Source: Arenicellales bacterium (GTDB lineage: Bacteria; Pseudomonadota; Gammaproteobacteria; Arenicellales; JAHEKD01). Taken from it: a stretch of DNA of 64,000 bases. The position numbers and the translations under genes were made by a program. Location of the stretch: contig JANQSD010000013.1 in assembly GCA_028284225.1 (NCBI GenBank), positions 136,422 through 200,421 on the forward strand. Direction: 5' to 3'. Each line of letters starts with the position of its first letter. Position 1 is the first letter of the stretch. The notes beneath the pieces are model-generated. The model was not told the DNA's origin. It was given only the letters and a program-made list of their open reading frames with translations, and did no database searches. Positions 38,285-58,118 of this stretch are shown here, piece by piece.

Positions 38285-40699
38285 ATGAAATCACACGCTC
38301 AGGTTGTTGTAATTGGTGGCGGTGTAGTCGGCTGCAGCGTTCTCTATCATTTGACCAAGTTTGGCTGGACAGATGTGCTGTTGCTCGAACGTTCAGAATT
38401 AACATCTGGCTCAACCTGGCATGCAGCAGGTGGATTCCATACTCTGAATGCGGATACCAATATGGCCGCACTTCAAGGCTACACCATTAAACTCTACAAA
38501 GAATTAGAGGAAATCTCGGGCCAAAGCTGTGGTTTACATCATGTAGGAGGACTGACTTTGGCCACCACTCCCGAGCGCATGGATTTTCTCAAAGCCGAAC
38601 GAGCCAAACATCGTTATATGGGATTGGAAACAGAAATTGTCGGACCGCAGGAAATTTCAAAGCTTTCGCCAATCACTAATACAGAGGGTGTAATCGGTGC
38701 GCTTTACGATCCACTAGACGGTCATCTGGACCCTTACGGCACCACGCATGCTTATGCCAAGGCAGCCAAACTGAATGGCGCTGAGATTCAACTTCGAACA
38801 AAAGTTGAGGCACTCGATCCAAAACCAGACGGAAGCTGGGAAATCGTCACCGACCAGGGCAATATCATAGCTGAATATGTAGTCAATGCGGCTGGTCTTT
38901 GGGCTAGAGAAATTGGTGAAATGGCTGGTGTTTATCTGCCTCTACACCCGATGGAGCACCAATATTTAGTCACAGATGAGATCGATATTATCATCAATCG
39001 TGAGCATGAATTACCACATGTGATGGACCCGACAGGGGAAAGTTATTTACGACAGGAAGGTAATGGATTGGTGATCGGTTTCTATGAACAGGCCTGTGTA
39101 CCTTGGGCGGTTGATGGTACGGATTGGAACTTCGGGCATGAATTATTAGAAGATGATTTAGATCGTATCGGTGATTCGCTGACAATTGCTTATCATCGCT
39201 TTCCGGTGTTAGAAACTGCAGGCTTAAAGCGTGTTATCAATGGCCCGTTTACCTTTGCACCGGATGGTAATCCGTTGGTTGGTCCGGTACCGGGGCTAAC
39301 AAATTTCTGGTCAGCGTGTGCCGTGATGGCAGGGTTTAGCCAGGGAGGTGGTGTTGGATTAACGCTTGCAGAATGGATGGTAGAAGGGCAGCCGTCACGT
39401 GATGTCTTCGCCATGGATGTGGCCCGGTTTGGCGACTATTGCACCAAGGACTACACCCGAATTAAAGTAACTGAGAACTATCAACGTCGTTTTGCCGTTT
39501 CTTACCCCAATGAGGAATTGCCGGCAGGCCGACCATTACATACCACACCTGCGTACGATATCTGGAAACAGCAAAACGCCGTTTTTGGCCAGGGATATGG
39601 CCTAGAGCATGTAAATTACTTTGCGCCAGCCGGCGAAGAACCGTATGAAATTCCCAGCTTTAGACGTTCTAATGCATTTGCCACTGTCAGCGAAGAGTGC
39701 AGAACCGTCAGAGAGGCAGTCGGCTTAAATGAAATCCATAATTTCAGCAAATTCAAAATCACCGGGGGAAATGCCCGGGCCTGGCTGGATAAAATCATGG
39801 CCGGACGAATTCCAAAACCAGGAAGAATTGCCTTAACGCCCATGTTAAACCATAAAGGTTTTTTGATAGGTGATTTCACCATCATGAATCTAGGTGATGG
39901 TGGCTTTCAACTGACAGCTTCTTATTCAGCTCAGGCCTTTCATCAGCGTTGGTTTGAGCAACATATGCAAGAGGGTGTTGAAATTGAAAATATTTCGCTG
40001 AATAAAATCGGCTTTCAAATTGCCGGACCTAAGGCAAGGGAATTATTATCTCGGATAACCGACTATGACGTATCACATGACAATTTCAAATTTTTGTCGG
40101 TTAAAGAAATTAACCTTGGGGATATAAGTGCTTTAGTTGCCCGAGTCAGCTATACCGGCGATCTTGGTTATGAAATCTATGTAGATGCAGAGCAACAACC
40201 AAAGCTATATGAACTTTTAACGACGGCAGGGCAGAATTTAGGACTTAAACCTTTTGGTATGCGGGCAATGATGAGCCTGCGCCTGGAAAAATCATTTGGC
40301 TCCTGGATGAATGAATTCAAGCCTGACTATACAGCCGCGGAGACAGGGCTAGATCGCTTTATCGATTTTGACAAGCCTGTGGCATTTATAGGTAAACAGG
40401 TTGCTACCGCTGAAAGGAATAACCCGCCGGCAAGACGGTTATGTACCATGATTGTTGAAGCCGATGATGCGGATGTCTGGGGTTATGAACCGGTCTGGAA
40501 AAATAACAAAGTCATTGGTTTTGTCACTTCAGGTGGCTACGCACACTATTCACAACAAAGTGTGGCTTTTGCACTGTTACCCAGAGAATTGATTAGCGAT
40601 GGAGAAGAATTTGAAATCGAAATCCTGGGCGAGCTCAAAAAAGCCCGGGTTTTTACTGAAACACTGTTTGATCCGCAATCATTAAGGCTTCGTAGTTAA
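38285..40699 (+). CDS. Dimethylglycine/sarcosine-dehydrogenase-family protein (DAO flavin domain fused to a GcvT-like folate domain)
   Basis: 804 aa. Motifs 'VVVIGGGVVGCSVLYHL' and 'SGSTWHAAGG' (position of the covalent-FAD His in DMGDH). The C-terminal half has 'SYTGDLGYEIY'. Confidence 0.85.
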   Translation: MKSHAQVVVIGGGVVGCSVLYHLTKFGWTDVLLLERSELTSGSTWHAAGGFHTLNADTNMAALQGYTIKLYKELEEISGQSCGLHHVGGLTLATTPERMDFLKAERAKHRYMGLETEIVGPQEISKLSPITNTEGVIGALYDPLDGHLDPYGTTHAYAKAAKLNGAEIQLRTKVEALDPKPDGSWEIVTDQGNIIAEYVVNAAGLWAREIGEMAGVYLPLHPMEHQYLVTDEIDIIINREHELPHVMDPTGESYLRQEGNGLVIGFYEQACVPWAVDGTDWNFGHELLEDDLDRIGDSLTIAYHRFPVLETAGLKRVINGPFTFAPDGNPLVGPVPGLTNFWSACAVMAGFSQGGGVGLTLAEWMVEGQPSRDVFAMDVARFGDYCTKDYTRIKVTENYQRRFAVSYPNEELPAGRPLHTTPAYDIWKQQNAVFGQGYGLEHVNYFAPAGEEPYEIPSFRRSNAFATVSEECRTVREAVGLNEIHNFSKFKITGGNARAWLDKIMAGRIPKPGRIALTPMLNHKGFLIGDFTIMNLGDGGFQLTASYSAQAFHQRWFEQHMQEGVEIENISLNKIGFQIAGPKARELLSRITDYDVSHDNFKFLSVKEINLGDISALVARVSYTGDLGYEIYVDAEQQPKLYELLTTAGQNLGLKPFGMRAMMSLRLEKSFGSWMNEFKPDYTAAETGLDRFIDFDKPVAFIGKQVATAERNNPPARRLCTMIVEADDADVWGYEPVWKNNKVIGFVTSGGYAHYSQQSVAFALLPRELISDGEEFEIEILGELKKARVFTETLFDPQSLRLRS

Positions 40700-43427: not shown

Positions 43428-44285
43428 TCAAATCAATGATTGACGAACTGTCTGTAAATAGATTTCTCTTAGTTTTAAAGTCAGTTCACCCGGCTTGCCG
43501 TCAGTGATAGTTTGATCATCGACTCTGGTCACCGGAATGATATAGCTTGAGGCACCGGTAATGAATGCTTCATCAGCATCATATACATGCTCCAGTTTGA
43601 ATTTGCACTCAGAAATTTCAAGCTTGTTTTGTTCAGCCAAAGTGACCACAGCTTTCCTTGTCACTCCAGGTAAAATTTTATTTGAGAGGGGACGAGTCAT
43701 AATCATCTTATTCTTAATCATAAAAAAACTGGTAGCACCACCTTCTGTAACAAAACCATCTTCGTCAATTAACAGCGCCTCATAGGCACCTGATTCACAG
43801 GCTTGTTGCTTGGCCAAAACCTGACCAAGGAGATTGACAGATTTAATATCACGCCTAGCCCAACGCAGATCTTTGCAGCTGGATAACTTAACACCGTGAT
43901 TTTCATATTTATGCTCTGTATTAGGTTTGGCTTGAGTAAACATAAAGACAGTAGGCGTTAACCCTTGTTGCCAGACAAAATCACGTTCTGCTTCACCTCT
44001 GGTGATCTGCATATAGACCAAGCCTTCTTGGAGCGTGTTTAATGAAACCAGTTTTCTATAAGCAACCAAAATTTCATCTTCAGTCAACGGTGATTCGATA
44101 GACAATGCCGCTAACGAATTTTTAAGTCGAGCCATATGATTAGAAAAATCAATCAATTTACCGTCTAAAACACCAGCCACTTCATAGACAGCGTCGCCAA
44201 ATAATAGCCCCCGATCAAAAATTGATACCTTTGCCCGCTGCGGAGCTAAATATTCACCATTTAAATATACTGTACGCGTCGCCAT
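43428..44285 (-). CDS. Class-IV aminotransferase, D-amino-acid aminotransferase-like
   Basis: 285 aa. Motifs 'VYLNGEYL...AKVSIFDRGLLFGDAVYEV', 'RWARRDIKSVNLL' and 'EGGATSFF'. Confidence 0.8.
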   Translation of the reverse strand: MATRTVYLNGEYLAPQRAKVSIFDRGLLFGDAVYEVAGVLDGKLIDFSNHMARLKNSLAALSIESPLTEDEILVAYRKLVSLNTLQEGLVYMQITRGEAERDFVWQQGLTPTVFMFTQAKPNTEHKYENHGVKLSSCKDLRWARRDIKSVNLLGQVLAKQQACESGAYEALLIDEDGFVTEGGATSFFMIKNKMIMTRPLSNKILPGVTRKAVVTLAEQNKLEISECKFKLEHVYDADEAFITGASSYIIPVTRVDDQTITDGKPGELTLKLREIYLQTVRQSLI

Positions 44286-44287
44286 CT

Positions 44288-45730
44288 TTAGTGCCTTAAA
44301 AACTGTCCAGGACGGTGTTCAGTTGAGGCGCCGTGCTGCCATACAGGTTTACCATTTACAAATACACTATGAATACCCTTGGTTGGCTGTTCCGGATCAT
44401 CAAAATCGGCCAAATCTTCAATGGTTTGTGAATCGAAAATAACCATGTCAGCATAATATCCGGGTTTGAGTAAACCGCGATCTTTGAGCGTAAATGTTTG
44501 AGCGCTTAGCCCGGTCATTTTATGTATTGCCTGCTCAAGTGTTAACAGTTTTTGCTCACGTACATAGCGTTTCAAAACCCTTGGAAATGTTGCCCAAAGC
44601 CGGGGATGCGGTTTTTCATGGCCAGGTAATCCATCAGAACCGATCATGGTGCTTGGATAACTCATAATTCGTTTTAAATCTTCTTCATCCATTTGAAAAT
44701 AAATGGCGCCGGCTGGATAAAGCTTCTGTGCTGCCTGCTTTTGACTGCAATTCCAAGCTAAAGCTATTTCACCCAATAGACGGCCGTTCTGTTCCGGATG
44801 AGGCTTGGACCAGCTTACAATCACTTTTTCAGCATTATCAATAAAGCGTGGTAGCAGCGTTGTCGAGCTAGCGATATACGGATAAACATCCAGAGCGACG
44901 TCTTGACCGTTTTCCTGGGCAAGCCTGATTTTTGCTAATGTCTCAACGCTACGACCATAATTTTTGGGACCCGCACACTTGTGATGAGAAATAACAATAG
45001 CTGTCTTTGACTTCTTACCAATGACTAATGCTTCTTCAACAGCCTCAAGCACACCATCACATTCATCGCGTATGTGCGAGGTATAGATCGCCGACTCAAA
45101 CTCATTCAAAACCTTGGCTAATTCAATAATTTCGTCAGTAGATGATTGCAGGGCAGGTGGGTAATCCAGTCCAGTACTTAAACCTATACAGCCTTGTTGC
45201 AACGCCAGCTTCAGGTCTGCTTTCATTTGGTTGAGTTCAGATTCTTCAGCTGTTCGCTCAAATCCACTATTCATGGCCTTAACACGCAATGAACTATGAC
45301 CCGCTAACAGGGCAACATTGGTAGCGGCCGGGGACGTTTCAAATTTATCGCGATAATCCGAGACACGGGGAAAAACGAAATCCTTTTGTTCACCCAGCAA
45401 CGGAAAAGGAGCTGGAAATTCTCCTTGAGCTTGAAATGGAGCCAGGCTAATACCACAATTACCGGCCACTACTGTAGTGACACCCTGCGAAACCTTGAAG
45501 GGCATAGCAGGTGTTTTTAATAATGCTGAATCATCATGGGTATGAACATCGATAAAACCCGGTGAAACACACCAGCCGTTGGCGTCAATTTTCTCATCCG
45601 CCTGATAGTGATTTAGCGCTCCGATTTCGATAATTCGATCTGTTTCTATAGCAATATCAGCTTGGTAGGCTGCATTACCGCTGCCATCAATAATAGTGGC
45701 GTTAGTAATCTTAAGGTGGCAGCGGGGCAT
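44288..45730 (-). CDS. N-acyl-D-amino-acid deacylase (D-aminoacylase) family amidohydrolase
   Basis: 480 aa. Motifs 'ATIIDGSGNAAYQADIAIETDRIIEIG...VSPGFIDVHTHDD' and 'QGVTTVVAGNCGISLAP'. Confidence 0.8.
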   Translation of the reverse strand: MPRCHLKITNATIIDGSGNAAYQADIAIETDRIIEIGALNHYQADEKIDANGWCVSPGFIDVHTHDDSALLKTPAMPFKVSQGVTTVVAGNCGISLAPFQAQGEFPAPFPLLGEQKDFVFPRVSDYRDKFETSPAATNVALLAGHSSLRVKAMNSGFERTAEESELNQMKADLKLALQQGCIGLSTGLDYPPALQSSTDEIIELAKVLNEFESAIYTSHIRDECDGVLEAVEEALVIGKKSKTAIVISHHKCAGPKNYGRSVETLAKIRLAQENGQDVALDVYPYIASSTTLLPRFIDNAEKVIVSWSKPHPEQNGRLLGEIALAWNCSQKQAAQKLYPAGAIYFQMDEEDLKRIMSYPSTMIGSDGLPGHEKPHPRLWATFPRVLKRYVREQKLLTLEQAIHKMTGLSAQTFTLKDRGLLKPGYYADMVIFDSQTIEDLADFDDPEQPTKGIHSVFVNGKPVWQHGASTEHRPGQFLRH

Positions 45731-47031
45731 TAACCCAAAACCGAAAAACTGCTATCCGGGTTAATTTCACGATTACGAGAGAAAAAACCCAGGTTTAAAT
45801 CAAAACCAATATGCTTGAGGCGAAAATGTACCGGGTTCGAATCATGGTCACGACCGTTTTCACATTCTGAAATTAGCTTAGCCATCATTTCACCGGCAAT
45901 TGGTGCATTTTTGTATTGGTTACCACTGGTACCACAGGCCATGTAAAAGCCCTTAACAAAACTTTTATCATAGATCGGTATCCAGTCCTCAGTCACATCA
46001 TAAAGCTCAACCACACCTTTTGCCTGCCCGGGAATTTCCATATCCGTAACCCGTTGTGCAGCACGCATTGCTAAGGTATTCCAGTGTGAACTAAAGTTAC
46101 GATCAAAATCATCCGGATCTACCCATTCTTTGTTATCACAATCTGGGTCTTCACTACCAACCAGAATATGATTGCCAATTTCCGGTCTTAGATAAGCACC
46201 GATATCATTATCGGACACCACACAACCATCATGTTCAAAATCATAAGCTTTAGGCGCAGGGACATGGGCAACCTCATGACGCAAGGCTCGAGTAGAAATT
46301 TTCATGTCAGCGGTAACACCGGCCATTTCATTAATAATTGAAGAATGGGGGCCAGCAACATTAACAAGGACGCTAGTACTAATAATTTGCTCAGCGTTTA
46401 ATATCACAGCGGTAATTTGGTTACTTGTTATCTGGATATCAGTAACAGCAGTATTAAATCTGAACTCGACACCTGCAGCTTCGGCTGCACATTGAACATT
46501 ATGTGCCGATAATTGCGGGTCACTAACGTAACCACCGTGCGGGAAAAATACAGCACCTGTAACCGTGCTGCCATTGGAAGTACCGAAATCCGGGTGCTCG
46601 GGGGGCTTGGCTGGTGTATAGGATTTCATGTTGATTAAGGGCAAACGTTCCTGCACCTGGTCAGTGGTTAATTCTTCATAAGGACAACCGATCTCATCCA
46701 TGATTTTTATAGTCGGTTTTAGATGCCCGTTTTCTTCGGTTTTCATCACCAGGCAACCACAATCATGATAGATTACATTGCCTTTTTCATCCTCTAAACC
46801 TAGATATTGGTCCCAGTTTTTCCAGTAAAAATGACTTTCATAGGCTAAGGCTGAACCTTCTACAGTTGAATAATAGGGTCTAATAATGGCACATGAACCA
46901 CTGGTCGAACCATAACCTGCAGCCGGCAGTTTATCGACACAGAGTGTTTTGTAACCTGACATAGCTAATTGGTAAGCTGTTGATGTACCAATAATTCCTG
47001 CACCGATGACTACAGCATCGTAATTACTCAT
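45730..47031 (-). CDS. DAO-family FAD-dependent oxidoreductase (sarcosine-oxidase-beta / D-amino-acid-dehydrogenase-like)
   Basis: 433 aa. 'YDAVVIGAGIIGTSTAYQLA' is present. Its stop shares 1 nt with the D-aminoacylase start (TAATG). Confidence 0.8.
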   Translation of the reverse strand: MSNYDAVVIGAGIIGTSTAYQLAMSGYKTLCVDKLPAAGYGSTSGSCAIIRPYYSTVEGSALAYESHFYWKNWDQYLGLEDEKGNVIYHDCGCLVMKTEENGHLKPTIKIMDEIGCPYEELTTDQVQERLPLINMKSYTPAKPPEHPDFGTSNGSTVTGAVFFPHGGYVSDPQLSAHNVQCAAEAAGVEFRFNTAVTDIQITSNQITAVILNAEQIISTSVLVNVAGPHSSIINEMAGVTADMKISTRALRHEVAHVPAPKAYDFEHDGCVVSDNDIGAYLRPEIGNHILVGSEDPDCDNKEWVDPDDFDRNFSSHWNTLAMRAAQRVTDMEIPGQAKGVVELYDVTEDWIPIYDKSFVKGFYMACGTSGNQYKNAPIAGEMMAKLISECENGRDHDSNPVHFRLKHIGFDLNLGFFSRNREINPDSSFSVLG

Positions 47032-47045
47032 AATAACTCCATTAT

Positions 47046-48566
47046 TTACAAGCTGGGTGCACCGCCCTCAGCTTTGCGCTTTTGAACAAATTCATCTAAC
47101 TGCTCAGCACAATCTTGTTCCAGCAAAGGCTCGTTATATTCGGCAAGCAATTGTTTCCAGATTTTGTTTGCTTTTTGTGTTGCTGTGACTTCGCCATTCT
47201 CCTGCCAGGTTTCGAAGTTACTCCAATCTGAAACCAGGGGGCTATAAAATGCATGCTCATAACGCTCGATAGTATGAGCCGATTGAAAAAAGTGGTTACC
47301 CGGGCCGACTTCATCGATGGCTTTTACTGCTAGCTCATCCTCAGCAAATGATAACGGCTGCAAATATTCTGACATCATTTGTAGCATCTCAGCATCCAGA
47401 ATTACTTTCTCATAGTTAGCACAAAGCCCGCCTTCCAGCCATCCCAGGCCATGCATGATTAAATTAATATGACCGTTAATACATGACCATAAAGACATTT
47501 GCGATTCGTAAACAGATTGCGCATCAGGTGCGTTGGATGCATTCGCATTCGACGCACGCAGAGGTATCTGATATTTGCGTGCCAATTGTCCACTGATAAC
47601 AGTGGCCTTAGCGTATTCAGGTGTCCCGAACGCGGGTGAACCCGACTTCATATCTACGTTTGAAGTAAAACTGCCATACATAACCGGACAACCAGGATTG
47701 ACTGCCTGGGCAAAGGCTATACCGGCCAGGGCTTCAGCATTCTGTTGTACTAATGCACCTACCACAGTTACGGGGGCCATTGCCCCGGCCAGGGTAAACG
47801 GTGTAAAGGCCACAGGTTGACCGCGTCTCACCATTGATAACACCCCTTGCAACATTGGAATATCATATTGAAGCGGTGAATTAGCATTAACAATTGTGAT
47901 CAACGAGGGTTGTTCTTGTAACGTTTGTTCATCAATGCCGCGAATGATTTTTGCGATTTCAAGACCATCATTAATACGAACATCACCCAGGGCATAGGCG
48001 TATAAAGGTTTATCTGTCAGTGTTGCCAAGGCTGCAATTGCATCCAGATGGCGTGTGGTCGGCGGCAAGTCAATCGGCTCTACAGGATAGCCGGCAATCA
48101 AATGAGTTGTATTTAAACTTTGCCCAAGCTTGAGCAAATTACAATAATCATGAAAATTTCCAGTTCGCCGGCCTTTATCCAGACAAGAAACATTCGGAGT
48201 GCTTGCGACCATAGAGAAGTTAACTGCATTTTCACCAAAGAACAGGTTATGACCAGCATTTCTTGCATGCAGCGTAAAACTTGGAGGCGCTTTACTGACC
48301 AACTCTATTAATAGATCCGGGTCAAATCTAACCCGCTCACTACCGGTTTCTGTTTGTGCACCGGCTTGTTTCAAAATCTCGCGTGCTTCAGGTAGCAAAA
48401 ACCGCATGCCTGTATCACGTAAAAGCGCTAAAGAAGCATGATGAATCGCCTCTATTTCATCTTCAGAAGCAATCGCTAAGGCGGGATAGGGATTACGTAA
48501 ATGCCGATAAGGAAGCTGCTTTATTGAGTTTGATTCTCTGGGGTTTCTGCGTGCTCGGCGTACCAT
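47046..48566 (-). CDS. Trimethylamine-methyltransferase (MttB) superfamily protein, non-pyrrolysine type
   Basis: 506 aa with an uninterrupted frame (no in-frame UAG). 'SEDEIEAIHHASLALLRDTGMRFLLPEAREILKQAGAQ...RVRFDPDLL' matches the MttB-family N-terminus. Length is typical. Confidence 0.8.
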   Translation of the reverse strand: MVRRARRNPRESNSIKQLPYRHLRNPYPALAIASEDEIEAIHHASLALLRDTGMRFLLPEAREILKQAGAQTETGSERVRFDPDLLIELVSKAPPSFTLHARNAGHNLFFGENAVNFSMVASTPNVSCLDKGRRTGNFHDYCNLLKLGQSLNTTHLIAGYPVEPIDLPPTTRHLDAIAALATLTDKPLYAYALGDVRINDGLEIAKIIRGIDEQTLQEQPSLITIVNANSPLQYDIPMLQGVLSMVRRGQPVAFTPFTLAGAMAPVTVVGALVQQNAEALAGIAFAQAVNPGCPVMYGSFTSNVDMKSGSPAFGTPEYAKATVISGQLARKYQIPLRASNANASNAPDAQSVYESQMSLWSCINGHINLIMHGLGWLEGGLCANYEKVILDAEMLQMMSEYLQPLSFAEDELAVKAIDEVGPGNHFFQSAHTIERYEHAFYSPLVSDWSNFETWQENGEVTATQKANKIWKQLLAEYNEPLLEQDCAEQLDEFVQKRKAEGGAPSL

Positions 48567-48667: not shown

Positions 48668-48701
48668 AAATAAAAAGAGGGCTTTCATATAGAAAGCCCT
48701 C
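48668..48701 (-). terminator. Rho-independent terminator after the usp gene
   Basis: GAGGGCTTTC-ATATA-GAAAGCCCTC is a perfect 10-bp stem. On the minus strand it is followed by TTTTTATTT. It starts 20 nt after the stop at 48722. Confidence 0.75.
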
Positions 48702-48721: not shown

Positions 48722-49171
48722 TTATCTTACAACGGTAACAGAACACTCAGCATGGCGAGCTACACGAGCTGAGTTAGGACCAAGCAAAAAGTCTGCCAGT
48801 GAAGGCCGATGCGCACCCATGACGATTTGATCAATATTCAAATCTTTGGCTGCTTCTACAATTTCACGATAGACCGTGCCATTTTCAACAATAACACCAG
48901 CTTGCAACTCAGTAGGAATATGCTCATTAGCAATTTCTCTAAGCTTTTCTGCAGCTTCATCTTTCCATTGTTGCATAGGGTATTCGGTTGATCCATGCAT
49001 CTCACCGCGTATTGCGTAACGTTGGTCAATCCCAGTTGTAATTCCTGAAATTACAGTCATCAGATAGATTTTGGCACCTTCATTGCCAGTTGCCATAGCA
49101 ACTGTCTTACCAATCACATCTTTCCAGGACTCCTCATCAGCAAGATCGATGGCTGCTAAATAATTAGACAT
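48722..49171 (-). CDS. Universal stress protein (UspA family)
   Basis: 149 aa. C-terminal 'IVMGAHRPSLADFLLGPNSARVARHAECSVTVV' is typical of Usp. Confidence 0.85.
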   Translation of the reverse strand: MSNYLAAIDLADEESWKDVIGKTVAMATGNEGAKIYLMTVISGITTGIDQRYAIRGEMHGSTEYPMQQWKDEAAEKLREIANEHIPTELQAGVIVENGTVYREIVEAAKDLNIDQIVMGAHRPSLADFLLGPNSARVARHAECSVTVVR

Positions 49172-49195: not shown

Positions 49196-51097
49196 TTAAT
49201 CGCCATCTTCAGGCATGGTGAATTTACGCGGACTAGGCAGCATGCATATATAAATCATCCAAATGGCAAATGCTATAGCCAGGATATTCATGATTGAAAT
49301 ATCAATACTAAACGGCAATGATTTATCTGCCACTTCAATAGTTGGAATTAAGGAAGCATGTTTCGGTAAAGCTGGATCAATAACATCGCTGGCACCGATT
49401 GCTTCACGTATAGAAGATACTTCACCCGCACTAACCGGCACTACTCCTGCTTCACTCGTGCCAGCTGTGCCAGGGCCAACTTCACCGGCATCTTGAACAC
49501 GCTCGACTGGACCAGCCAATACAACCTGTGTACTAACACTGGAGACAGGTTGATATTGAGCGTTATAGGTACGTGCAGGGATTGTAGCCGGACGGATAAA
49601 ACTGAAATTTGCTGTATGACCGCCTTCAGCCCACTCGTCCAGGCTGACTAAGCCAATGGCTGCATTGACCAAAGCACCGCTCACTTCACGATCTCCCTGA
49701 GGAGCCATGACGAATACACCATCGCCGTCACCATTAACTAAACTAGCAACTTGATCTGCAACACCTGCATCAGAGTTTACAACTTCAACACTTTCAGATG
49801 AACCTAGTGAGCTAAGAATCATGGCTAAAACATTTGCGGAGCTTGAACCAACAGGGCCTGTAATGATTTTACTCATATCCCCAATAGATTTAGCACCTCC
49901 ACGAAGGGCGATCAAATGCGCAGATTTATAACCTAAGACGGCAAACGCCTCAGCATTATTCTTGGCAACAGGGCCGCTATCTCCCAAAGCATAGAAAGTT
50001 TCAGCACCTACCATAGCTACTCGGGCACTCCCATCCGATAAGGCAGCTAATGGTGTAGCAGTATTTGATAACTCAAGATCATTGCCTGAAAATCCGGCTC
50101 GAATCGCTCTTAGAGCCTTAGCTGTAGTGCTACTCGCACCAACGCTTGGGTCTGCTGCTACAAGTAATTTGTCAGCACCGCCACCGCCAGCACCCTCAGG
50201 CAGTAAACCTTTAGACACAAGGTAGTTTGTTGCCACAGACGCGGGTGTTTGAGCATCCAGGTCTACAGCCTTATTCATCGCCTGCATATCAGCTGCGCTG
50301 ATTGCACCGGCGAGTTTCTCTAATACAGTTGATAATCCTGGCACCGCAGAAAGCGCATCAGAACGCACTAACGGTGCAGCCTCGTAAATGGGGAAAAAAC
50401 GTTTATCATCTTCCAACACGATCAAGTCGTACTCGGCAATCTGACCATCAGTTGCAAAAAGTTCAGCCACATCGGCAGAGCCATCAAGCAATGCGGAAAT
50501 TTGCTGATCTTTACCTTCCGTGCCAGTTGGAAATGGCAGTGAACTGCTACCGGAAATACCATAATGACGGTTCATTTGCTGTAATCCATCAGCGGGACGT
50601 TCAAGAAAGTCCTGCTCAACAGCGAAGGTTACAGGGTCAGTCAGTCCAGCCAGGTCACTGATCTTGGTAACACCTAGTTCTTGTGCCCGATCAGCACTCA
50701 TGGTCATGACATAGTCATTAGAAAAACCGAAACTGCCAGCTAATTGAAGTCCCTGGGACTCAAATAACTTATTAACAGTTTCTGTAGTTTTAGCGCTATC
50801 ACTACTTGGTGCCTGACCAAGAAAAGTTAGGCTTGTACCATTATATTCTGGATAAACATCGACAATACCTTGTTTAGCAGCTTCCATGACGGTTGACGTA
50901 AAACCGTAAGACAGATTACGTGTTACGTCTATGCCTTCGTTCTCTGCTAATTGAGCAATCATTTCAGCTAATACTTCGCTTTCAGTGAACGGTTTAGAAC
51001 CGACACTTAAACTTGGTTTTTCTTCAGCACAACCAATCAGAACAACTGAAAACAGGGCAATTGTGAAATATTTAAAGTATTTATTTAACATTATCAT
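49196..51097 (-). CDS. Membrane-anchored double substrate-binding protein: OpuCC/OsmF-type quaternary-amine SBP domain, TAXI-like SBP domain, C-terminal TM helix
   Basis: 633 aa with lipobox 'VVLIGC'. Residues about 30-300 resemble the YehZ/OpuCC family (VGSKPFTESEVLAEMIAQL, DVYPEYNGTS, FFPIYEAAPLVR). Residues about 310-560 resemble TAXI-type receptors (ATIPARTYNAQ...). The C-terminal hydrophobic stretch is 'IMNILAIAFAIWMIYICML'. Confidence 0.65.
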   Translation of the reverse strand: MIMLNKYFKYFTIALFSVVLIGCAEEKPSLSVGSKPFTESEVLAEMIAQLAENEGIDVTRNLSYGFTSTVMEAAKQGIVDVYPEYNGTSLTFLGQAPSSDSAKTTETVNKLFESQGLQLAGSFGFSNDYVMTMSADRAQELGVTKISDLAGLTDPVTFAVEQDFLERPADGLQQMNRHYGISGSSSLPFPTGTEGKDQQISALLDGSADVAELFATDGQIAEYDLIVLEDDKRFFPIYEAAPLVRSDALSAVPGLSTVLEKLAGAISAADMQAMNKAVDLDAQTPASVATNYLVSKGLLPEGAGGGGADKLLVAADPSVGASSTTAKALRAIRAGFSGNDLELSNTATPLAALSDGSARVAMVGAETFYALGDSGPVAKNNAEAFAVLGYKSAHLIALRGGAKSIGDMSKIITGPVGSSSANVLAMILSSLGSSESVEVVNSDAGVADQVASLVNGDGDGVFVMAPQGDREVSGALVNAAIGLVSLDEWAEGGHTANFSFIRPATIPARTYNAQYQPVSSVSTQVVLAGPVERVQDAGEVGPGTAGTSEAGVVPVSAGEVSSIREAIGASDVIDPALPKHASLIPTIEVADKSLPFSIDISIMNILAIAFAIWMIYICMLPSPRKFTMPEDGD

Positions 51098-51103
51098 TTC
51101 TCC

Positions 51104-52663
51104 TTATGCTGTTTCTTCAGGTGTATGTCCAACCGGCATGACCTCACGCACTTTAGTGCTGGACTCTTTAACCATATGATCATCACGCACAATTCTAAAG
51201 AAAGCGATCAGCTGCATAATAATGATGATCGTAAACGGAATTGCTCCGGTAATAGCCATGGCTTTGGCCACCGTGACGCTCTCTGTAACAATTGTAGAGA
51301 CTGTCAATGCAGTAATTATCAATCCCCATGTAAGCTTTAACTTAGTTGGTGGATTCAAGCTACCATTGCTTGTCATCATACTAATTACGAATGTACCCGA
51401 ATCAGCACTTGTTACCAGAAAGATAAATATTAAACATACTGATAAGAAGTTAAGAATTGTAGTGCCGGGGAAATATTCAAAAAAGCCGAATAGTGCCGCT
51501 GACACATCCGCGAAAACTAAAGGTGCAACACCTCCATCACCAAACATTTGGATATGAATGGCTGCGCCACCGAAACATGCAAACCAAAGCATTGAAGCAA
51601 TAGTTGGCACGCCTACAACGAAAGTCACAAACTCTCTGATGGTTCGGCCGCGACTAATTCTTGCCACGAAAATTCCCACAAACGGACCCCAGGCTAACCA
51701 CCAGATTAAATAAGTTAATGTCCAACCATGAAACCAGTTCCAACTACCAAAATCAGTATAGCTATAGGTCTTAAACGACAGTGGTATTAATGCAAACAGA
51801 TAATCACCGATTGAATAAATAAAAACTTGCAGCAAGTATGCTGTGGGGCCACCAAACAATACCACAAGCATGATCGCCACAGCTGTCAACATGTTGATGT
51901 TACTTAAAATCTTGATGCCTTTATCCACACCTGTGCAAGCTGACAATAAGAAACAAACGGTCATCACAACTATTATGATCATACTCATGGTAACACTTTG
52001 ATCTGTCCCAAACACTGAGTGCATACCAGATCTAACCATTAAAGTGCCCATTGCTAAGGAACCTGCCAACCCAAAAATAACGGACAATACAGCTAGAATA
52101 TCAGCAGTGCTACCCAAAGCATTCAAGGTACCGCGGCTGAATACATTTTTGAAACCAACCAAGATGGGTGTTGATACCATAGAGGGAAGGTTGAGCCTAA
52201 AAGTGAAGTAAGCAATTACCAAGGCACAACAACCGTAGATTGACCAAGCATGAAAACCCCAGTGCAAATTAGTCAACACAAATGCATTTCTGGCAGCAGA
52301 GGCTGTTTCACCTGGTTCATCGGGTGGTGTCATGAAATGATAGATGGGTTCTGCCACTCCCCAGAACAACAGACCTGAGCCCATCCCTGCAGCAAATAAC
52401 ATTGCCACCCAGGAACCAGTGCTAAATTCAGGCACTTCATCATCACCGCCCAATTTGATCTTGCCGTACTTACTAAATCCCATATATCCCATGATTACAA
52501 GGAAAGCTGTACAGAGAAATAAGTAAAACCAATCTAATGATGTTAGAACATAGTTCACTAAACCTTGTGCAGAACCGGTCATTGAGTCGGGGTCTATTAA
52601 GCCCCAGGCACCAATGCCGCCGCATAAAATCAGTGAAATTAACATGGTCTTGTTCATAGGCAA
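51104..52663 (-). CDS. BCCT-family (betaine/carnitine/choline) transporter
   Basis: 519 aa with 12 TM segments. 'GFHAWSIY' and the Trp-rich 'WNWFHGWTLTYLIWWLAWGPFVGIFVARISRGRTIREF' are BCCT signature regions. Confidence 0.9.
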   Translation of the reverse strand: MPMNKTMLISLILCGGIGAWGLIDPDSMTGSAQGLVNYVLTSLDWFYLFLCTAFLVIMGYMGFSKYGKIKLGGDDEVPEFSTGSWVAMLFAAGMGSGLLFWGVAEPIYHFMTPPDEPGETASAARNAFVLTNLHWGFHAWSIYGCCALVIAYFTFRLNLPSMVSTPILVGFKNVFSRGTLNALGSTADILAVLSVIFGLAGSLAMGTLMVRSGMHSVFGTDQSVTMSMIIIVVMTVCFLLSACTGVDKGIKILSNINMLTAVAIMLVVLFGGPTAYLLQVFIYSIGDYLFALIPLSFKTYSYTDFGSWNWFHGWTLTYLIWWLAWGPFVGIFVARISRGRTIREFVTFVVGVPTIASMLWFACFGGAAIHIQMFGDGGVAPLVFADVSAALFGFFEYFPGTTILNFLSVCLIFIFLVTSADSGTFVISMMTSNGSLNPPTKLKLTWGLIITALTVSTIVTESVTVAKAMAITGAIPFTIIIIMQLIAFFRIVRDDHMVKESSTKVREVMPVGHTPEETA

Positions 52664-53111: not shown

Positions 53112-53966
53112 ATGAATGTTGAAAACATTAAAGCCTTTCTGGAAGTCGCATCAACCGGAAGCTTCCAACAGGCCGCCGAGAACATGCACATCACACAATC
53201 CACCATGAGTGCAAGAATAAAAAGTCTCGAAGAGTCTATCAATAGGCAATTATTTATACGCAAGCGCACTGGCGCTGTTTTAACTCCAGGAGGAAAGAAT
53301 TTTTTTCGCTATGCGGTTACTGTAGTCAAAACTTGGGAAAGGGCACGTACAGAAGCTTCGTTACCGGAAAATATTGAATCTATTGTCGGTCTGGGATTAC
53401 AGCTGAATCATTTAGAGGACGTTGGTCAAAAATGGACACAGTGGATCAGTAATGAGGCACCTAATGTCGCCACACAAATTAAATCTGATTATTCAGATCG
53501 ATTAATGAATCAATTGCGCAACGGGTTCTTAGATATTGCAATTGTCTATGATCCGCAAAAAAGCCCGGAAGTCGAAATTCAACGATATAAAACTGAGAAG
53601 CTGGTTTTGGTTTCAACCGAACCGAGATTATTTCAACAGGGCAAAGTGGATGATTATATATTTGTAGATTGGGGAGAAAGTTACAGAGCGGATCATAATC
53701 GCATATTCGTAGAAGGTTCGTACCAGACCATGGAAATTTCAATCGCATCTGTGGCTCTAAACTACATCCTGGGACACGGAGGTTCCGGATATTTTCTAGA
53801 AAGCCAGGTATTGCCATTAATACAACAGCAAAAATTGTTTCGAGTCGATGACTCTGTAGCCATGTACATCAATTTATTCATGGTATTTAATGTTGACCGG
53901 AAAAACGATTACTCAGTAAAAATTGCTATAGATGGATTAAATGCGATTAAAGAGATGCGGGAGTAA
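53112..53966 (+). CDS. LysR-family transcriptional regulator
   Basis: 284 aa. N-terminal HTH 'IKAFLEVASTGSFQQAAENMHITQSTMSARIKSLEE'. It is divergent from the BCCT cluster. Confidence 0.9.
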   Translation: MNVENIKAFLEVASTGSFQQAAENMHITQSTMSARIKSLEESINRQLFIRKRTGAVLTPGGKNFFRYAVTVVKTWERARTEASLPENIESIVGLGLQLNHLEDVGQKWTQWISNEAPNVATQIKSDYSDRLMNQLRNGFLDIAIVYDPQKSPEVEIQRYKTEKLVLVSTEPRLFQQGKVDDYIFVDWGESYRADHNRIFVEGSYQTMEISIASVALNYILGHGGSGYFLESQVLPLIQQQKLFRVDDSVAMYINLFMVFNVDRKNDYSVKIAIDGLNAIKEMRE

Positions 53967-53978
53967 AACTTGCGCTTG

Positions 53979-55421
53979 TTAAAGATTATTTTCTGCTAAT
54001 TTATAAGCAATATAGTATTTATTGACATTAGCCACATATTGTACAGTTTCACGGCCAATTTCACGTGCTGCCATACGTTCGACATTGAAAAACCATTTAT
54101 TAGGGTCATAACCGTTTTCAGCTGCCAATTCTCGAAGCCGGTTAATTCGAGCAGGTCCGGCATTATAGGCAGCCCAGGTAAAGTCTATTTGATCCTCCGG
54201 CGCAATGTCGTCTGATGAAAAGTAGCGATCACGCAAATAGGCCAAATATTTAACTCCGGCATTAATATTATTCTCGCCATTATCAATATCAGGTATGCCC
54301 ACCTCATGAGACGCTGCCGTATCGGGTTTAATTTGCATAATGCCTACGGCTCCACGCGGGCTAACTTTACTTTGATCAATCCTGGATTCCTGATACGCCA
54401 TGGCGGCGACAGAAAGCCAATCAAAATTATGCTCGGCCGCATATTTTTGAAATAGAGATTTATATTTTTCCAACCTAGACGCTTGCTCAGGGGCTGTAGG
54501 GTCATCTATCCACTTCGAATTTTCATAATAGCGTTTAAAAAAAATATTGCCGAGCAAGGTACCTTTACGGATATCCGCAATGAATTGATTTAAACTATCC
54601 AATAATTCATTTGAATCTTTGCGCACTGCCCAGGCAATTTCACCGCCGGCATTAATTTTCAAATCTTCACGCACAACAATATTGGGCAACACATCCTGCC
54701 AGGCTTTGGCAGTAAAATCATCAGCCACAGTCAACGTGTAGATACCGGCATTAATTAATTCAAAAATATCTTCGGAGGTTAAATTTGGTGGAGCTTCAAG
54801 TATCTTTGCTGGTTTCAAACCTTGTTCAGTAAGCTGCTCATTTAATTCTTCCGCATGCTGAATAAAGCTGCTCCCCGCCAACAGATACAGCGACTTACCG
54901 GATAAATCATCCAGGGAATTTAAACCCGTAGTCGATTTATTTTGCACAATGACTTCACTGACTTTAGAAAAGTAGGGTTCAGTGAATTCGACTAACTTTT
55001 GTCGTTCTGGCGTAATCGTAAAATTCGCAACAGCGATATCTCCACGACCTTCAACCAGGTCCGCAAGAATATCGGCAAATGGCCTGACAATAAACGTCGC
55101 AACGGTTTTGTTGGCTTCATTCGAAATATTTTGATTCAAGAGCTTTTCATACTCACGCATGATTTCATAATCGAAACCTTTAATTTCAGGGCCATCGAAA
55201 AAAAAGTTGGTTTTGCTGTATGACACTAATACTCTTAACAGTCGCCGCTCTTTTATTTCTGCCAAATCCCCGAATTCAGGTGTCGAAACCCGGTCTATTA
55301 GTGCTTGTTCAGCATTGCTCGCAGGTGTGTCGACTTCTTCTGGTTTGTCTTCAACAATTAATAGCAAGGCAGCAGCGATAAGGATCACCGCAATCAAACT
55401 GAATATAATTGTATTTTTCAT
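53979..55421 (-). CDS. mltF: Membrane-bound lytic murein transglycosylase F (SBP_bac_3 domain plus SLT domain)
   Basis: 480 aa. The N-terminal half is amino-acid-SBP-like. The SLT catalytic region is 'AAMAYQESRID...SPRGAVGIMQI'. Confidence 0.85.
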   Translation of the reverse strand: MKNTIIFSLIAVILIAAALLLIVEDKPEEVDTPASNAEQALIDRVSTPEFGDLAEIKERRLLRVLVSYSKTNFFFDGPEIKGFDYEIMREYEKLLNQNISNEANKTVATFIVRPFADILADLVEGRGDIAVANFTITPERQKLVEFTEPYFSKVSEVIVQNKSTTGLNSLDDLSGKSLYLLAGSSFIQHAEELNEQLTEQGLKPAKILEAPPNLTSEDIFELINAGIYTLTVADDFTAKAWQDVLPNIVVREDLKINAGGEIAWAVRKDSNELLDSLNQFIADIRKGTLLGNIFFKRYYENSKWIDDPTAPEQASRLEKYKSLFQKYAAEHNFDWLSVAAMAYQESRIDQSKVSPRGAVGIMQIKPDTAASHEVGIPDIDNGENNINAGVKYLAYLRDRYFSSDDIAPEDQIDFTWAAYNAGPARINRLRELAAENGYDPNKWFFNVERMAAREIGRETVQYVANVNKYYIAYKLAENNL

Positions 55422-55810: not shown

Positions 55811-57421
55811 TTATAAATTGGGAAAGGCTCTGTCTATAAATGCTGCAGTTTGAGCGTTTGTTAAATTATCATTGGGACAGAATTTTTTTGGTAAAGAAGT
55901 AGTGCAACCTCCAATAATACCATCATTGTAGAGTCTTTCTACATATCCAGCCCAAGGATGATCGATCAAGTCAGAAAAAACACCAACCGAAGTAGGTGCC
56001 GAAGTGATTCCATACTTTACCCTATATAAGAAAAGAGCCCAATGTAACCTAGAAACCGTTGTATACGGACAATACTTTCCGCCTCCACAACCACCTGTTA
56101 TGCCATCGCGTTTTAGTTGCTCAATCCAAGAAGCAAGCGGGAGTGTTTTAGGCACATCTGAAAATACATTACCTGTGGCTGGAGGAGGAGTAAAATACCT
56201 ACCATGCTTAGCTCTAACTAGATAAACAGCCATATAATCTCTACGTGTAGAATTTTCAGGCAGGAAAATTCGAGGGCTGCTACCATGCCCATTCATAACA
56301 TTTTTTCGATCTAAATTATTTATGCTATTTCTTGCCCAATGATTATACGGCACATCATCAAAAGATGGCCAAACTGTTTGAACATAATGAGTGTTGTACC
56401 AATATCGAATTGAAAATGCTGCACCAAGTGTGATTAAGTTATTTTGATGTGTAAAAATTCTTTCACGTTTTATGATTTCTTTAGGGGAAGCATTTAGACA
56501 ACACCCTTCATTATTGGGAATGGGATTTGCGGGATGGTTGGGGTGCTTGGTGAAATGTTCAATATTAACTCGAACTGTTGACACATTTGTAGTATTTCTA
56601 ACAGGGTATAATATGTTCTTTATGTAATTTATCGTATCAGTTGTAGTAAGGCGTTTATAATTGACCTTGTCAATATATTGATTTTTAGTTTCACAACTTT
56701 TCCCGGTCTCGCTGTTAGGATCATCCTTTGCAATGCATCTATATTTCCATGTCCCACCAAGACCGTCTTGCAAATCAATCTTTCGAATTTTGTTTGCTGA
56801 CAGAAATGTGTTTATAAGGCCATTTTTAATTTGTGTTCTAGCCGATGGGTTCAGTTCTCCATACGGTTTTTTTATCCAAGGAGAGATCATAATTTCAGCA
56901 TTTTTAACTGCTGTTAAATCATTAGAAAGCTTTGTATAAATCTGTTTCACATTATTCTGGTAGGTACTATTGCCCATATGTTCTAATCCAAATTCTTGGG
57001 TGATATACCAACCAAATTTAGCTCCCAAATATCCATATTCATTATGTATGTAATTTGCAACTGCCTTATGCTTCTCATAATTAGGCCTGGAAGAGTTATC
57101 ATATAGATGAATATTGGATTCAAGAATGGTTCCGAAGTAAATTTTTTTGAAACAATAAAACAATGGTTCGATTTTTGCATCTACTTCAGAATAATATTGG
57201 CTAAAATTATTCCCTTCGAGTTTCGCGTGATTAACGACTACTAGATCTTGGTATTTATTGGTACTGCATTTACTTTTCAGTTTGTTAATTCCTGCTTTAG
57301 CCATAGTATTTAGTGGCGTGGTGATCATAATGCTTTTTATTGAACTGCCAGTCACAAAAGCATGGCTATATTGAATAAACCCCAAAAACAATACTACAAT
57401 GGAAATTAATATTCTGATCAT
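55811..57421 (-). CDS. Secreted protein with an unknown (possibly glycoside-hydrolase-like) N-terminal domain and three C-terminal SLH-like repeats
   Basis: 536 aa with signal peptide 'ILISIVVLFLGFIQYSHA'. Three repeats start FDDVPYNHWA..., FSDVPKTLPLASWIEQLKRDGITGGC...YCP... and FSDLIDHPWAGYVERLYNDGIIGGC...FCP.... All fit the S-layer-homology pattern. Confidence 0.6.
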   Translation of the reverse strand: MIRILISIVVLFLGFIQYSHAFVTGSSIKSIMITTPLNTMAKAGINKLKSKCSTNKYQDLVVVNHAKLEGNNFSQYYSEVDAKIEPLFYCFKKIYFGTILESNIHLYDNSSRPNYEKHKAVANYIHNEYGYLGAKFGWYITQEFGLEHMGNSTYQNNVKQIYTKLSNDLTAVKNAEIMISPWIKKPYGELNPSARTQIKNGLINTFLSANKIRKIDLQDGLGGTWKYRCIAKDDPNSETGKSCETKNQYIDKVNYKRLTTTDTINYIKNILYPVRNTTNVSTVRVNIEHFTKHPNHPANPIPNNEGCCLNASPKEIIKRERIFTHQNNLITLGAAFSIRYWYNTHYVQTVWPSFDDVPYNHWARNSINNLDRKNVMNGHGSSPRIFLPENSTRRDYMAVYLVRAKHGRYFTPPPATGNVFSDVPKTLPLASWIEQLKRDGITGGCGGGKYCPYTTVSRLHWALFLYRVKYGITSAPTSVGVFSDLIDHPWAGYVERLYNDGIIGGCTTSLPKKFCPNDNLTNAQTAAFIDRAFPNL

Positions 57422-57548
57422 ATTTTACCTCTTGCCTGTAATTAAAAAAGCAGAATTATATCTTATATTTTCTTCATGCCTAATGTGTTTCTGAAATTTA
57501 GTATTAACCGGTGGTGCATTTAGGCTTAAATATCTATTTAATCGATAA

Positions 57549-57966
57549 TTATTGTTCTGTCTTAGTGGAAATTCCGGAGGAATTATCCGCAATCCAGATC
57601 ATATTTGGCATTTCTCCTGGATTCCGTATCAGCATGGAATGACCGGAGTTAAAAAATCGGTGATTCCCATAAGACTAATTCTCTAAATGCACTACGGGTT
57701 AGCGTTATTTTCACTTAGAATCTTACGTTTGCTAATCGATTTAATTGCAATCTGCACTAAGGCCAGTAATTTCCTTTATTTTAAGGTCAACACTCTCACC
57801 ATCAATCAAGATGCAGATAGTTGACTCTAGATTAGAAAGAATATAACCGAATTTTGATTAAGTTCTGTGTTTTGGATTTTTTAAGAATTGCATTCCAATA
57901 TGACAAATTCTAAAAGCATGAATATTGTCCTGTAATTTGATGAAATTTATGATAGATTGCGCTTCC
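57549..57966 (-). pseudogene. Decayed alpha/beta-hydrolase gene remnant
   Basis: Manual minus-strand translation gives four fragments in different frames separated by stops. They are 'EAQSIINFIKLQDNIHAFRICHIGMQFLKNPKHRT*' (degenerate nucleophile elbow), 'ILIDGESVDLKIKEITGLSADCN*', '..SENNANP*' and 'YGNHRFFNSGHSMLIRNPGEMPNMIWIAD...*' (catalytic-His region). Confidence 0.4.
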
Positions 57967-58118
57967 TTAATCCCATAGTTACTTTGCATAATTAAGGGGA
58001 ATTTATGGGGTATGTTTTATATAATCACAATAATGTATTTATATAGAACAATATCTTGGGTGCTTGAGCATATATAACTCTCACCTACCATTAACTATAG
58101 TTTAATTATTCAGTATTA

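Follow-up and report, generated by a model that had tools for sequence, protein, structure and literature searches.

A BCCT-family transporter gene coupled to a gene for a predicted tethered lipoprotein with two substrate-binding-protein folds in Gamma- and Alphaproteobacteria

We analyzed a 64,000-nucleotide stretch of the genome of an Arenicellales bacterium (Gammaproteobacteria; assembly GCA_028284225.1, contig JANQSD010000013.1, positions 136,422 to 200,421), hereafter the window, in which a gene for a BCCT-family secondary transporter is followed on the minus strand by a gene for a predicted accessory lipoprotein that joins two different substrate-binding protein (SBP) domains and by a gene for a universal stress protein (Usp). 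Comparison with homologous loci strongly supports the genetic and physical coupling of the BCCT and the accessory protein, and we hold with moderate confidence that the two, usually together with the Usp, constitute one conserved transport module for SBP-assisted uptake. The BCCT is taken to be the partner because the coupling was found in 57 of 57 loci, because natural covalent fusions of the two proteins exist, and because no other recurrent membrane partner was present among the loci examined. SBP-assisted uptake is favored because the binding residues of the first SBP domain and the substrate motifs of the BCCT are all conserved. From these patterns, we infer docking, substrate hand-over, the identity of the substrate, and the role of the Usp.

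To describe how the gene neighborhood is conserved, we retrieved 63 genome loci carrying the gene for the accessory protein (the fusion gene), of which six with fewer than 170 nt of upstream sequence were set aside for the BCCT count. In every one of the remaining 57, a BCCT gene lay directly upstream on the same strand. The first-pass annotation, made from the sequence of the window alone, had read this pairing as a genetic coupling, which the co-occurrence survey bears out for two proteobacterial classes and for plasmids. The distance between the two genes ranged from -4 nt (overlapping ATGA) to about +15 nt; in the window it is the previously described 6 nt, counted up to the first ATG of the junction TAA-GGAGAA-ATG-ATA-ATG. 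The gammaproteobacterial (gamma) carriers were Arenicellales, Poriferihabitaceae, and the Olavius Gamma 3 symbiont, and the alphaproteobacterial (alpha) carriers were Mesorhizobium, Roseobacteraceae, and Rhodospirillales. Because the two peptide patterns with which genomes were scanned favor the gamma type, the alphaproteobacterial distribution is underestimated. Compared with the proteins of the window, those of the alpha group were 36-39% identical for the accessory protein and 59-63% identical for the BCCT.

A gene for a Usp was the next one downstream in about 55 loci (~95%). All-against-all clustering of the neighboring open reading frames (ORFs) in the 63 loci revealed no other universal partner, and the BCCT was the sole polytopic membrane protein that was always adjacent. 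As a separate observation, about 24 gamma loci carry an EamA/DMT-family permease gene (PF00892) 3' of the Usp gene and in the same orientation (e.g., L010:3137-4021 and L030:3788-4669). This permease, also present in the Olavius algarvensis Gamma 3 symbiont and absent from the window, is a possible fourth gene.

The module also occurs on plasmids. The mobilizable MOBQ plasmid of Martelella sp. NC18 (L071) carries the BCCT and fusion genes with no Usp gene, and plasmid IV of Paracoccus aminovorans (L070), a 740-kb plasmid, carries a further copy. The latter appeared at first to be an exception with no annotated BCCT, and this was rejected when a frameshifted BCCT was found in an unannotated gap. 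Transposase genes of insertion sequences (IS630, IS5, or IS240) or their remnants flank the module on both plasmids and in loci L064 and L066 of Roseobacteraceae, the IS240 remnant being near a Roseobacteraceae copy. Its location on plasmids and between IS genes or remnants suggests that the module is horizontally mobile. Moreover, the flanking genes differ between genomes. Given these varied flanks, the IS fragments, and the plasmids, the coupling with the BCCT is therefore more than inherited synteny.

In one lineage, the two proteins are joined into a single chain. The protein P0371 (1,125 residues) comprises a BCCT (residues 20-502 by Pfam), a hydrophobic segment with a lipobox (509-538), an OpuAC domain (539-801), domain 2, and a transmembrane (TM) segment at 1093-1114. 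Two contigs, one from each of two JGI samples, carry its gene in identical and intact form. A third sample yielded a contig-edge fragment, P0318 (L068:5001-8378), with the same in-frame architecture and 53% identity to P0371. Because the fusion recurs at 53% identity in three samples, it represents a natural state that one lineage has conserved rather than a sequencing error. In both fusions, the former signal-peptide segment is still recognizable from its hydrophobicity and lies between BCCT TM12 and OpuAC. This makes sense topologically, as the C-terminus of the BCCT is cytoplasmic and the former signal peptide would act as a 13th TM segment carrying the SBP domains outward. The fusions thus place the N-terminus of the unfused domain 1 beside BCCT TM12. 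In addition, the lipobox is intact in the middle of the chain, as LSGC in P0371 (residues 509-541, ...ALSGCGGG...) and LQGC in P0318 (240-265), which raises the question of lipidation and cleavage into two proteins after insertion.

We then analyzed the accessory protein, whose parts are located in Table 1. As the first-pass annotation had proposed, it begins with a lipobox signal, LIGC at residues 20-23. The residue at +2 is Ala, the segment matches the lipoprotein pattern [LVI][ASTVI][GAS]C, and C23 is shared by all sequences of alignment A1 and by at least 90% of those in a 91-sequence alignment (A3). The accessory protein is therefore predicted to be a lipoprotein.

Domain 1 matched PF04069 almost in full (E = 1.7e-48, model positions 2-255 of 257), and its PDB matches at E = 3.5e-37 to 1e-30 included OpuBC-derived sensors, OpuCC (3PPN), A. 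fulgidus ProX (1SW2), and EgtUC. The Tyr/Tyr/Trp/Tyr of a solved OpuBC-derived homologue is matched in the alignment by Y85, Y129, F214 (Phe or Tyr across the family), and Y238. With a full-length match and an aromatic cage, domain 1 is assigned to the OpuAC-type SBPs. Residues K35, T88, and R167 are also invariant (alignment A1), and the domain looks ligand-competent from its sequence. The cage residues Tyr63, Tyr111, Tyr190, and Tyr214 of A. fulgidus ProX and its carboxylate ligands Lys13, Thr66, and Arg149 presumably correspond to these domain 1 residues at an offset of about 22; such a ProX-like mapping would favor a carboxylate-bearing betaine. Of the earlier description of this half as a complete OpuCC/OsmF-type domain, the complete OpuAC domain and the likeness to OpuCC hold. 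The score on the OsmF equivalog NF049931 was 109.8 bits against a cut-off of 400, and domain 1 was accordingly rejected as an OsmF orthologue. The Gly-rich linker expected between the two domains was recovered in the alignments at about residues 300-309, and the predicted local distance difference test score (pLDDT) is below 50 at the beginning of the domain 2 model, which corresponds to this linker.

Domain 2 is more divergent. In a single-sequence search of the PDB with the whole protein, only OpuAC-type structures were matched, and TAXI structures were reached with a profile. A domain 2 profile built from gamma and alpha homologues matched 1US4/1US5 (E = 3.3e-8), 8U79, and VcGluP (8S4J/9IBO; E = 0.0058). 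The TAXI Pfam family PF16868 (NMT1_3) matched residues 398-528 with 31.5 bits against a cut-off of 27, a partial match covering model positions 99-230 of 289, and TIGR02122 scored 28.9 bits, far under its cut-off of 84.35. An AlphaFold2 model of residues 300-633, built on 91 gamma and alpha homologues, reached a pLDDT of 89.7 and a predicted TM-score of 0.81; a full-length model built on 12 sequences was poor (pLDDT 53.7) and was not used. When the domain 2 model was compared with the PDB using Foldseek, the top seven matches were all TAXI SBPs (VCA0144, VcGluP, TtGluBP, and 4DDD; E = 2.5e-13 to 4.6e-12), with target-normalized TM-scores of 0.56-0.66, consistent with the TAXI-type two-lobe fold. 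By its predicted structure, then, the second half of the accessory protein is a TAXI SBP fold, in agreement with the TAXI/TRAP-receptor-like domain first proposed for it.

Domain 2 departs from characterized TAXI proteins in its ligand residues. We mapped the determinants of VcGluP (Y45, Q93, H123, and E125; PMC11574862) by hand on the HMM alignment and alignment A2 and found that they are not kept in domain 2. The position of Q93 is a conserved Gly, the Tyr45-type (YY) loop is missing from a variable region, the positions of His123 and Glu125 are not conserved, and the G-S-x-(S/D) loop alone persists. Nevertheless, F368, H394, W489, R502, Y511, and Q524 are invariant from the gamma to the alpha types, and in sequence terms domain 2 is a strongly diverged TAXI fold under strong constraint. 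Because the characterized TAXI determinants are missing, the phrase "second substrate-binding domain" names a fold, not a demonstrated function. Assignment of domain 2 as the SBP of a TAXI-TRAP system was rejected on the TIGR02122 score, the lack of a QM partner, and the missing ligand residues.

The segment that follows the TAXI fold is also conserved. In the post-TAXI extension, all 91 aligned sequences share G541, P542, D574, P575, and P585, and the helix of the extension is modeled at domain 2 positions 258-268 with a pLDDT of about 90. The C-terminal hydrophobic anchor noted at first sight corresponds to residues 594-622, which are modeled as a helix. This TM helix was found in the gamma, alpha, and covalently fused forms; all of the 91 sequences have S601, and at least 90% of them have W613. 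Because it keeps an invariant Ser and a conserved Trp, the sequence suggests that the helix may pack against a partner helix rather than serve as a mere anchor. The cytoplasmic tail that follows is cut down to about five residues in the alpha type.

The upstream gene encodes a typical BCCT. BCCTs are LeuT-fold carriers, and the protein matched PF02028 over nearly its whole length (521.8 bits, E = 1.9e-156, model positions 2-484 of 485) and scored 413.2 bits on TIGR00842 (cut-off 407.55), placing it in the family. Solved BCCTs, namely 8YBQ, 8ZW8 (a TMA transporter), 9VBP (BetT-like), and BetP, were matched at E = 1e-81 to 1e-93. Across 48 module BCCTs, the Gly stretch AAGMGSG, the segment HWGFHAWSIY, the Trp box GWTLTYLIWWLAWGPFVG, and FLVTSADSGTFV were nearly invariant, and FLVTSADSGT was also among the conserved substrate motifs. 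From knowledge of BetP, we take AAGMGSG, HWGFHAWSIY, and the Trp box to be substrate-binding motifs. The substrate-site motifs align with those of the solved BCCT 8YBQ. A conservation profile made from these 48 module sequences only, which we inspected for a signature of a periplasmic interface, was high along the whole BCCT. The protein scored 486.4 bits on the glycine betaine BCCT equivalog NF047988 (cut-off 650) and 376.6 bits on the BetT model NF007399 (cut-off 695), below both cut-offs, and the substrate of this BCCT is therefore not assignable by orthology.

In the mechanism that we propose, an N-terminal lipid anchor and a C-terminal TM helix would fix the two ends of the accessory protein to the inner membrane, on its outer side, and the protein would be a subunit seated on the BCCT. 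With its aromatic cage and Lys/Thr/Arg, domain 1 would capture a betaine-like quaternary amine from the periplasm and pass this substrate on to the BCCT in its outward-open state; the BCCT itself has a complete Trp-box site and the Na+-site motifs. Capture efficiency would thereby be raised at low external concentrations. The TAXI domain, the extension, and the TM helix could form a docking or positioning element, possibly with a ligand of its own, and the Usp may modulate transport from within the cytoplasm, much as TeaD regulates TeaABC.

Several points weigh against this reading. Characterized BCCTs transport alone with high affinity, and the module BCCT keeps a complete binding site, so that an SBP is not obviously needed. 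For a complex between the BCCT and the accessory protein, what was observed is genetic coupling and gene fusion only. Domain 2 lacks the ligand determinants of VcGluP and TtGluBP. The Usp appears dispensable in some lineages, being truly absent from L008, L038, and L040 as well as from the covalent fusions. Finally, the known SBP-dependent secondary carriers are all of the elevator type (PMC12344293), whereas in the module a closed SBP would have to release its ligand to a LeuT-fold vestibule. A stronger form of the proposal, to which we give only tentative credence, is that the BCCT is obligatorily fed by the doubly anchored tandem SBP. It would then be the first binding-protein-dependent LeuT-fold (rocking-bundle) secondary transporter, with the repurposed TAXI domain and the TM helix as a docking or coupling device.

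The earlier proposal had been SBP-assisted secondary transport or, alternatively, a sensor; coupling to the BCCT is supported, natural single-chain fusions exist, and of the two roles assisted transport seems the likelier. As a regulator or sensor, the tethered protein would sense periplasmic solutes, a betaine through domain 1 and another ligand through domain 2, and would switch the BCCT allosterically via the TM helix and the juxtamembrane segment, together with the Usp and without substrate hand-over. We consider this main rival unlikely, although gene coupling and covalent fusion fit it equally well and the substrate site of the BCCT is already complete. The Pfam domain of the BCCT ends at residue 494 and is followed by a short C-terminal tail, so that the module BCCT possibly lacks a C-terminal sensor of the BetP type, a comparison that we draw from knowledge of BetP. 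The TM helix is conserved, the cytoplasmic tail is conserved within the gamma type, and the co-inherited Usp hints at regulation. SBPs are also known as inputs to signaling proteins (PMC8050422). However, the reduction of the tail in the alpha type means that cytoplasmic signaling is not a conserved feature, and the Usp is missing in some lineages. Furthermore, an SBP that is translationally coupled 1:1, doubly anchored, and equipped with an intact cage of the high-affinity type resembles the tethered substrate-binding domains (SBDs) of transporters such as OpuA and GlnPQ.

It is also conceivable that the accessory protein is an orphan SBP serving an ABC (OpuC/Cbc-type) or TRAP transporter encoded elsewhere, and that it shares an operon with the BCCT since both handle betaines. 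PGAP uniformly names the protein "glycine betaine ABC transporter substrate-binding protein", both domains come from families that serve ABC or TRAP carriers, and there is precedent for ABC systems working with several unlinked SBPs (Cbc paper, as cited in PMC12478193). We nevertheless regard this explanation as very improbable. No recurrent ABC genes were found in the 63 loci, where ORFs with LSGGQ and Walker-A motifs occurred in five loci and were not adjacent, and no gene resembling TRAP DctM or QM recurred beside the fusion gene. DctPQM genes were present in L064 and L065, on the opposite strand, five genes away, and in one lineage only. The covalent fusions and the strict spacing of -4 to +15 nt across classes and plasmids point to the BCCT instead, and the double membrane anchor would limit diffusion to a distant partner.

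The extent of the family bears on the last alternative. We considered the 120 best matches of each of two homologue searches, in total 240 clusters at 90% identity. Those to the window protein were all 606-682 residues long and at least 60% identical to it, and those to a Mesorhizobium homologue were 609-628 residues long. Full-length homologues number in the hundreds across Gammaproteobacteria and Alphaproteobacteria, some of them from cultured strains and some encoded on plasmids. Isolates with the accessory protein include Mesorhizobium xinjiangense, Sedimentitalea todarodis, and Pseudosulfitobacter pseudonitzschiae (WP_089419582.1), as well as Thalassococcus, Denitrobaculum, Pelagibius, and Chelativorans. 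None of the models that we scanned is a dedicated family model for this protein. In a HMMER search with the domain 2 profile against 1.84 billion cluster representatives (50% identity), 145 representatives were detected at E<=1e-30. This exhaustive search also returned the single-chain protein P0371. Nearly all of the best 150 matches were 600-650 residues long with domain 2 at about residues 260-620, and among the matches listed, domain 2 occurred only behind an OpuAC domain. Candidates for free-standing domain 2 proteins were rejected because the short ones inspected start inside the OpuAC tail (MNKAVDLDAQ...) and are split or partial genes. A word-indexed domain 2 profile search gave 31 matches, mostly fragments. 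Although some database entries are frameshift fragments of this kind and one plasmid copy of the BCCT is frameshifted, the probability that a frameshift in assembly or annotation joined two SBP genes, or an SBP and a BCCT, is negligible, as the best 240 clusters are full-length (~610-640 residues) and come from many sources, nearly all of the best domain 2 matches share the architecture, and the ORF of the window is uninterrupted. For the gene of the window, an artefact is refuted.

In the window, the Usp gene follows the stop codon of the fusion gene after 24 nt and has its own AAGGAG ribosome-binding site; the product matched the UspF structure 4R2L (E = 5.4e-16). Because the Usp gene lies close behind the fusion gene with its own ribosome-binding site and a terminator-like hairpin follows it, the unit consists of three genes. 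The starts of the longest ORFs are probably not the real ones for either the accessory protein or the BCCT. The spacing of the GGAG Shine-Dalgarno sequence suits the second ATG (51091) better, giving an accessory protein of 631 residues, and a 100%-identical database protein (P0001) is also 631 residues long. For the BCCT, the ATG at 52657 seems a more likely start than the TTG at 52663 because homologues such as that of L001 start at the corresponding MNK.... A LysR gene also adjoins the module in L042 and in Roseobacteraceae but is not universal, and the divergent LysR-type regulator is a possible regulator of the unit.

Table 1. Location of the module, of the parts of its accessory protein, and of adjoining elements in the window.
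Feature	Position	Strand	Basis and remarks
LysR-type regulator, divergent from the unit	53112..53966	plus	PF00126 and PF03466
BCCT-family secondary transporter	51104..52663	minus	519 residues counted from the TTG start; PF02028, TIGR00842
Fusion (accessory) protein	49196..51097	minus	633-residue uninterrupted ORF
Lipoprotein-type signal peptide, lipobox L-I-G-C (residues 1-23)	51029..51097	minus	Regular expression and hydropathy
Domain 1, OpuAC/OpuBC/OpuCC/archaeal-ProX-type quaternary-amine binding (residues 29-293)	50219..51013	minus	PF04069
Gly-rich interdomain linker, short, sequence-variable (~residues 300-309, PEGAGGGGAD)	50171..50200	minus	Alignments A1 and A2
Domain 2, divergent TAXI-fold periplasmic-binding-protein domain (~residues 310-530)	49508..50170	minus	PF16868, AlphaFold2, Foldseek
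Conserved post-TAXI extension (residues 531-593), G(E/D)xGP and DPxLP motifs, one helix	49319..49507	minus	91-sequence alignment
C-terminal TM helix (residues 594-622)	49232..49318	minus	Kyte-Doolittle > 1.6; AlphaFold2 helix at domain 2 positions 299-319
Short cytoplasmic tail (residues 623-633, PRKFTMPEDGD)	49199..49231	minus	Sequence conserved among gamma-type proteins
UspF-like universal stress protein (third gene)	48722..49171	minus	PF00582, E = 1.9e-19
Terminator-like hairpin	48677..48701	minus	10-bp stem followed by TTTTTATTTG, just past the Usp stop codon; consensus scan only

Four genes directly downstream of the module on the minus strand encode, in order, a non-pyrrolysine MttB-family methyltransferase (47046-48566), a DAO-type FAD oxidoreductase (45730-47031), a D-aminoacylase-like amidohydrolase (44288-45730), and a D-amino-acid transaminase (43428-44285). 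Genes for MttB, the amidohydrolase, and the transaminase likewise lie 3' of the module in L042. A dimethylglycine/sarcosine-dehydrogenase-like gene with DAO, FAO_M, and GCV_T domains is located at 38285-40699 on the plus strand, and the part of the sequence that we inspected showed no corrinoid-binding protein. With D-amino-acid enzymes encoded beside MttB, there is a hint that an unusual betaine is catabolized. Because the MttB-family methyltransferase, DAO, and dimethylglycine-dehydrogenase-like genes are nearby, the cargo of the module probably feeds betaine catabolism in this genome, and the neighborhood fits nutrient acquisition.

Other features of the window lie outside the module. The LysR gene is adjoined by a gene for an MltF-like protein with SBP_bac_3 and SLT lytic transglycosylase domains (53979-55421, minus strand). 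MltF structures were also among the weaker Foldseek matches of domain 2, because the class II binding-protein fold is common to both. Past about position 56500, the GC content falls from about 0.41 to 0.33 (interval 55811-58000), and a 536-residue ORF at 55811-57421 gave only a weak SLH-domain match; this may be foreign or surface-protein DNA. A gene at 32106-33977 (plus strand) combining a cNMP-binding domain, two CBS domains, and a DUF294 nucleotidyltransferase is unrelated to the module.

The earlier suggestion that such a pairing has no described precedent agrees with our full-text literature search, which omits most subscription-journal papers and returned no report of a BCCT-SBP system. 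SBP-coupled secondary transport as such is already known; what appears new here is the coupling of an SBP to the BCCT family and the LeuT fold. If the proposal holds true, the BCCT and its dedicated, tethered SBP would add a fourth class of SBP-dependent secondary transport with a different mechanism, and the generalization that SBP-dependent secondary transport is of the elevator type only would be broken. The question posed in PMC12344293, whether the elevator mechanism is a prerequisite, thus becomes directly testable. For annotation, the uniform ABC-SBP label hides the real partner. The module occurs in marine sediment Gammaproteobacteria, symbionts of sponges and gutless worms, roseobacters, and rhizobia, and in these habitats the scavenging of betaines, choline, or other methylated osmolytes of this kind is a principal way of obtaining nutrients. 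Biochemical and cryo-EM work is practical, since there are cultured carriers and a natural single-chain form, P0371.

Among known systems, the closest parallel is TAXI-GltS (BP0403/BP0402) of Bordetella pertussis, proposed in 2025; before that, only TRAP and TTT were known to work with a soluble SBP (PMC12344293). All three are of the elevator type, and that mechanism was suggested as a possible requirement. The case for TAXI-GltS rests on translational coupling and rare gene fusions of SBP and carrier (PMC12344293). Since the evidence is of the same type, we count it for the coupling of the BCCT and its SBP. Both systems contain a multi-domain lipoprotein with a TAXI-fold SBP that is translationally coupled to a non-TRAP, Na+-coupled carrier, with rare fusions. 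They differ in that the carrier of the module is a LeuT-fold BCCT, not the elevator-type GltS, and in that the module has an additional complete OpuAC-type SBP at the N-terminus, a C-terminal TM helix, a co-inherited Usp, and a TAXI domain without the glutamate determinants. The TAXI-TRAP systems (VcGluP-VcGluQM and TtGluBP) share the TAXI fold with domain 2, and TAXI SBPs are often lipoproteins (PMC12344293). In contrast to them, the module has no adjacent QM gene in any locus, its key ligand residues are not conserved, and its domain 2 was never free-standing among the matches listed.

Tethering itself is known from ABC importers. In OpuA of Lactococcus lactis, an OpuAC-family betaine-binding domain is tethered to the translocator, and in GlnPQ, two tandem domains (SBD1-SBD2) are held at the membrane by the translocator; GlnPQ structures were among the weaker Foldseek matches of domain 2. 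These importers are driven by ATP, whereas the BCCT is ion-coupled, and the two domains of the module come from different SBP families. The stand-alone BCCTs BetP, BetT, OpuD, CaiT, and DddT resemble the module BCCT in being full-length with conserved substrate and Na+-site motifs, but the module BCCT is always paired with or fused to an SBP. The characterized BCCT systems that we consulted are described without one; a structural paper on DddT, for example, never mentions a binding protein. Finally, TeaABC, the ectoine TRAP transporter of Halomonas elongata, is a secondary carrier of osmolytes that depends on an SBP. The last gene of its operon encodes a Usp, TeaD, which regulates TeaABC (Schweikhard 2010, as cited in PMC3673472). 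TeaABC is a TRAP system of the DctP type, whereas the Usp of the module is UspF-like and a putative regulator.

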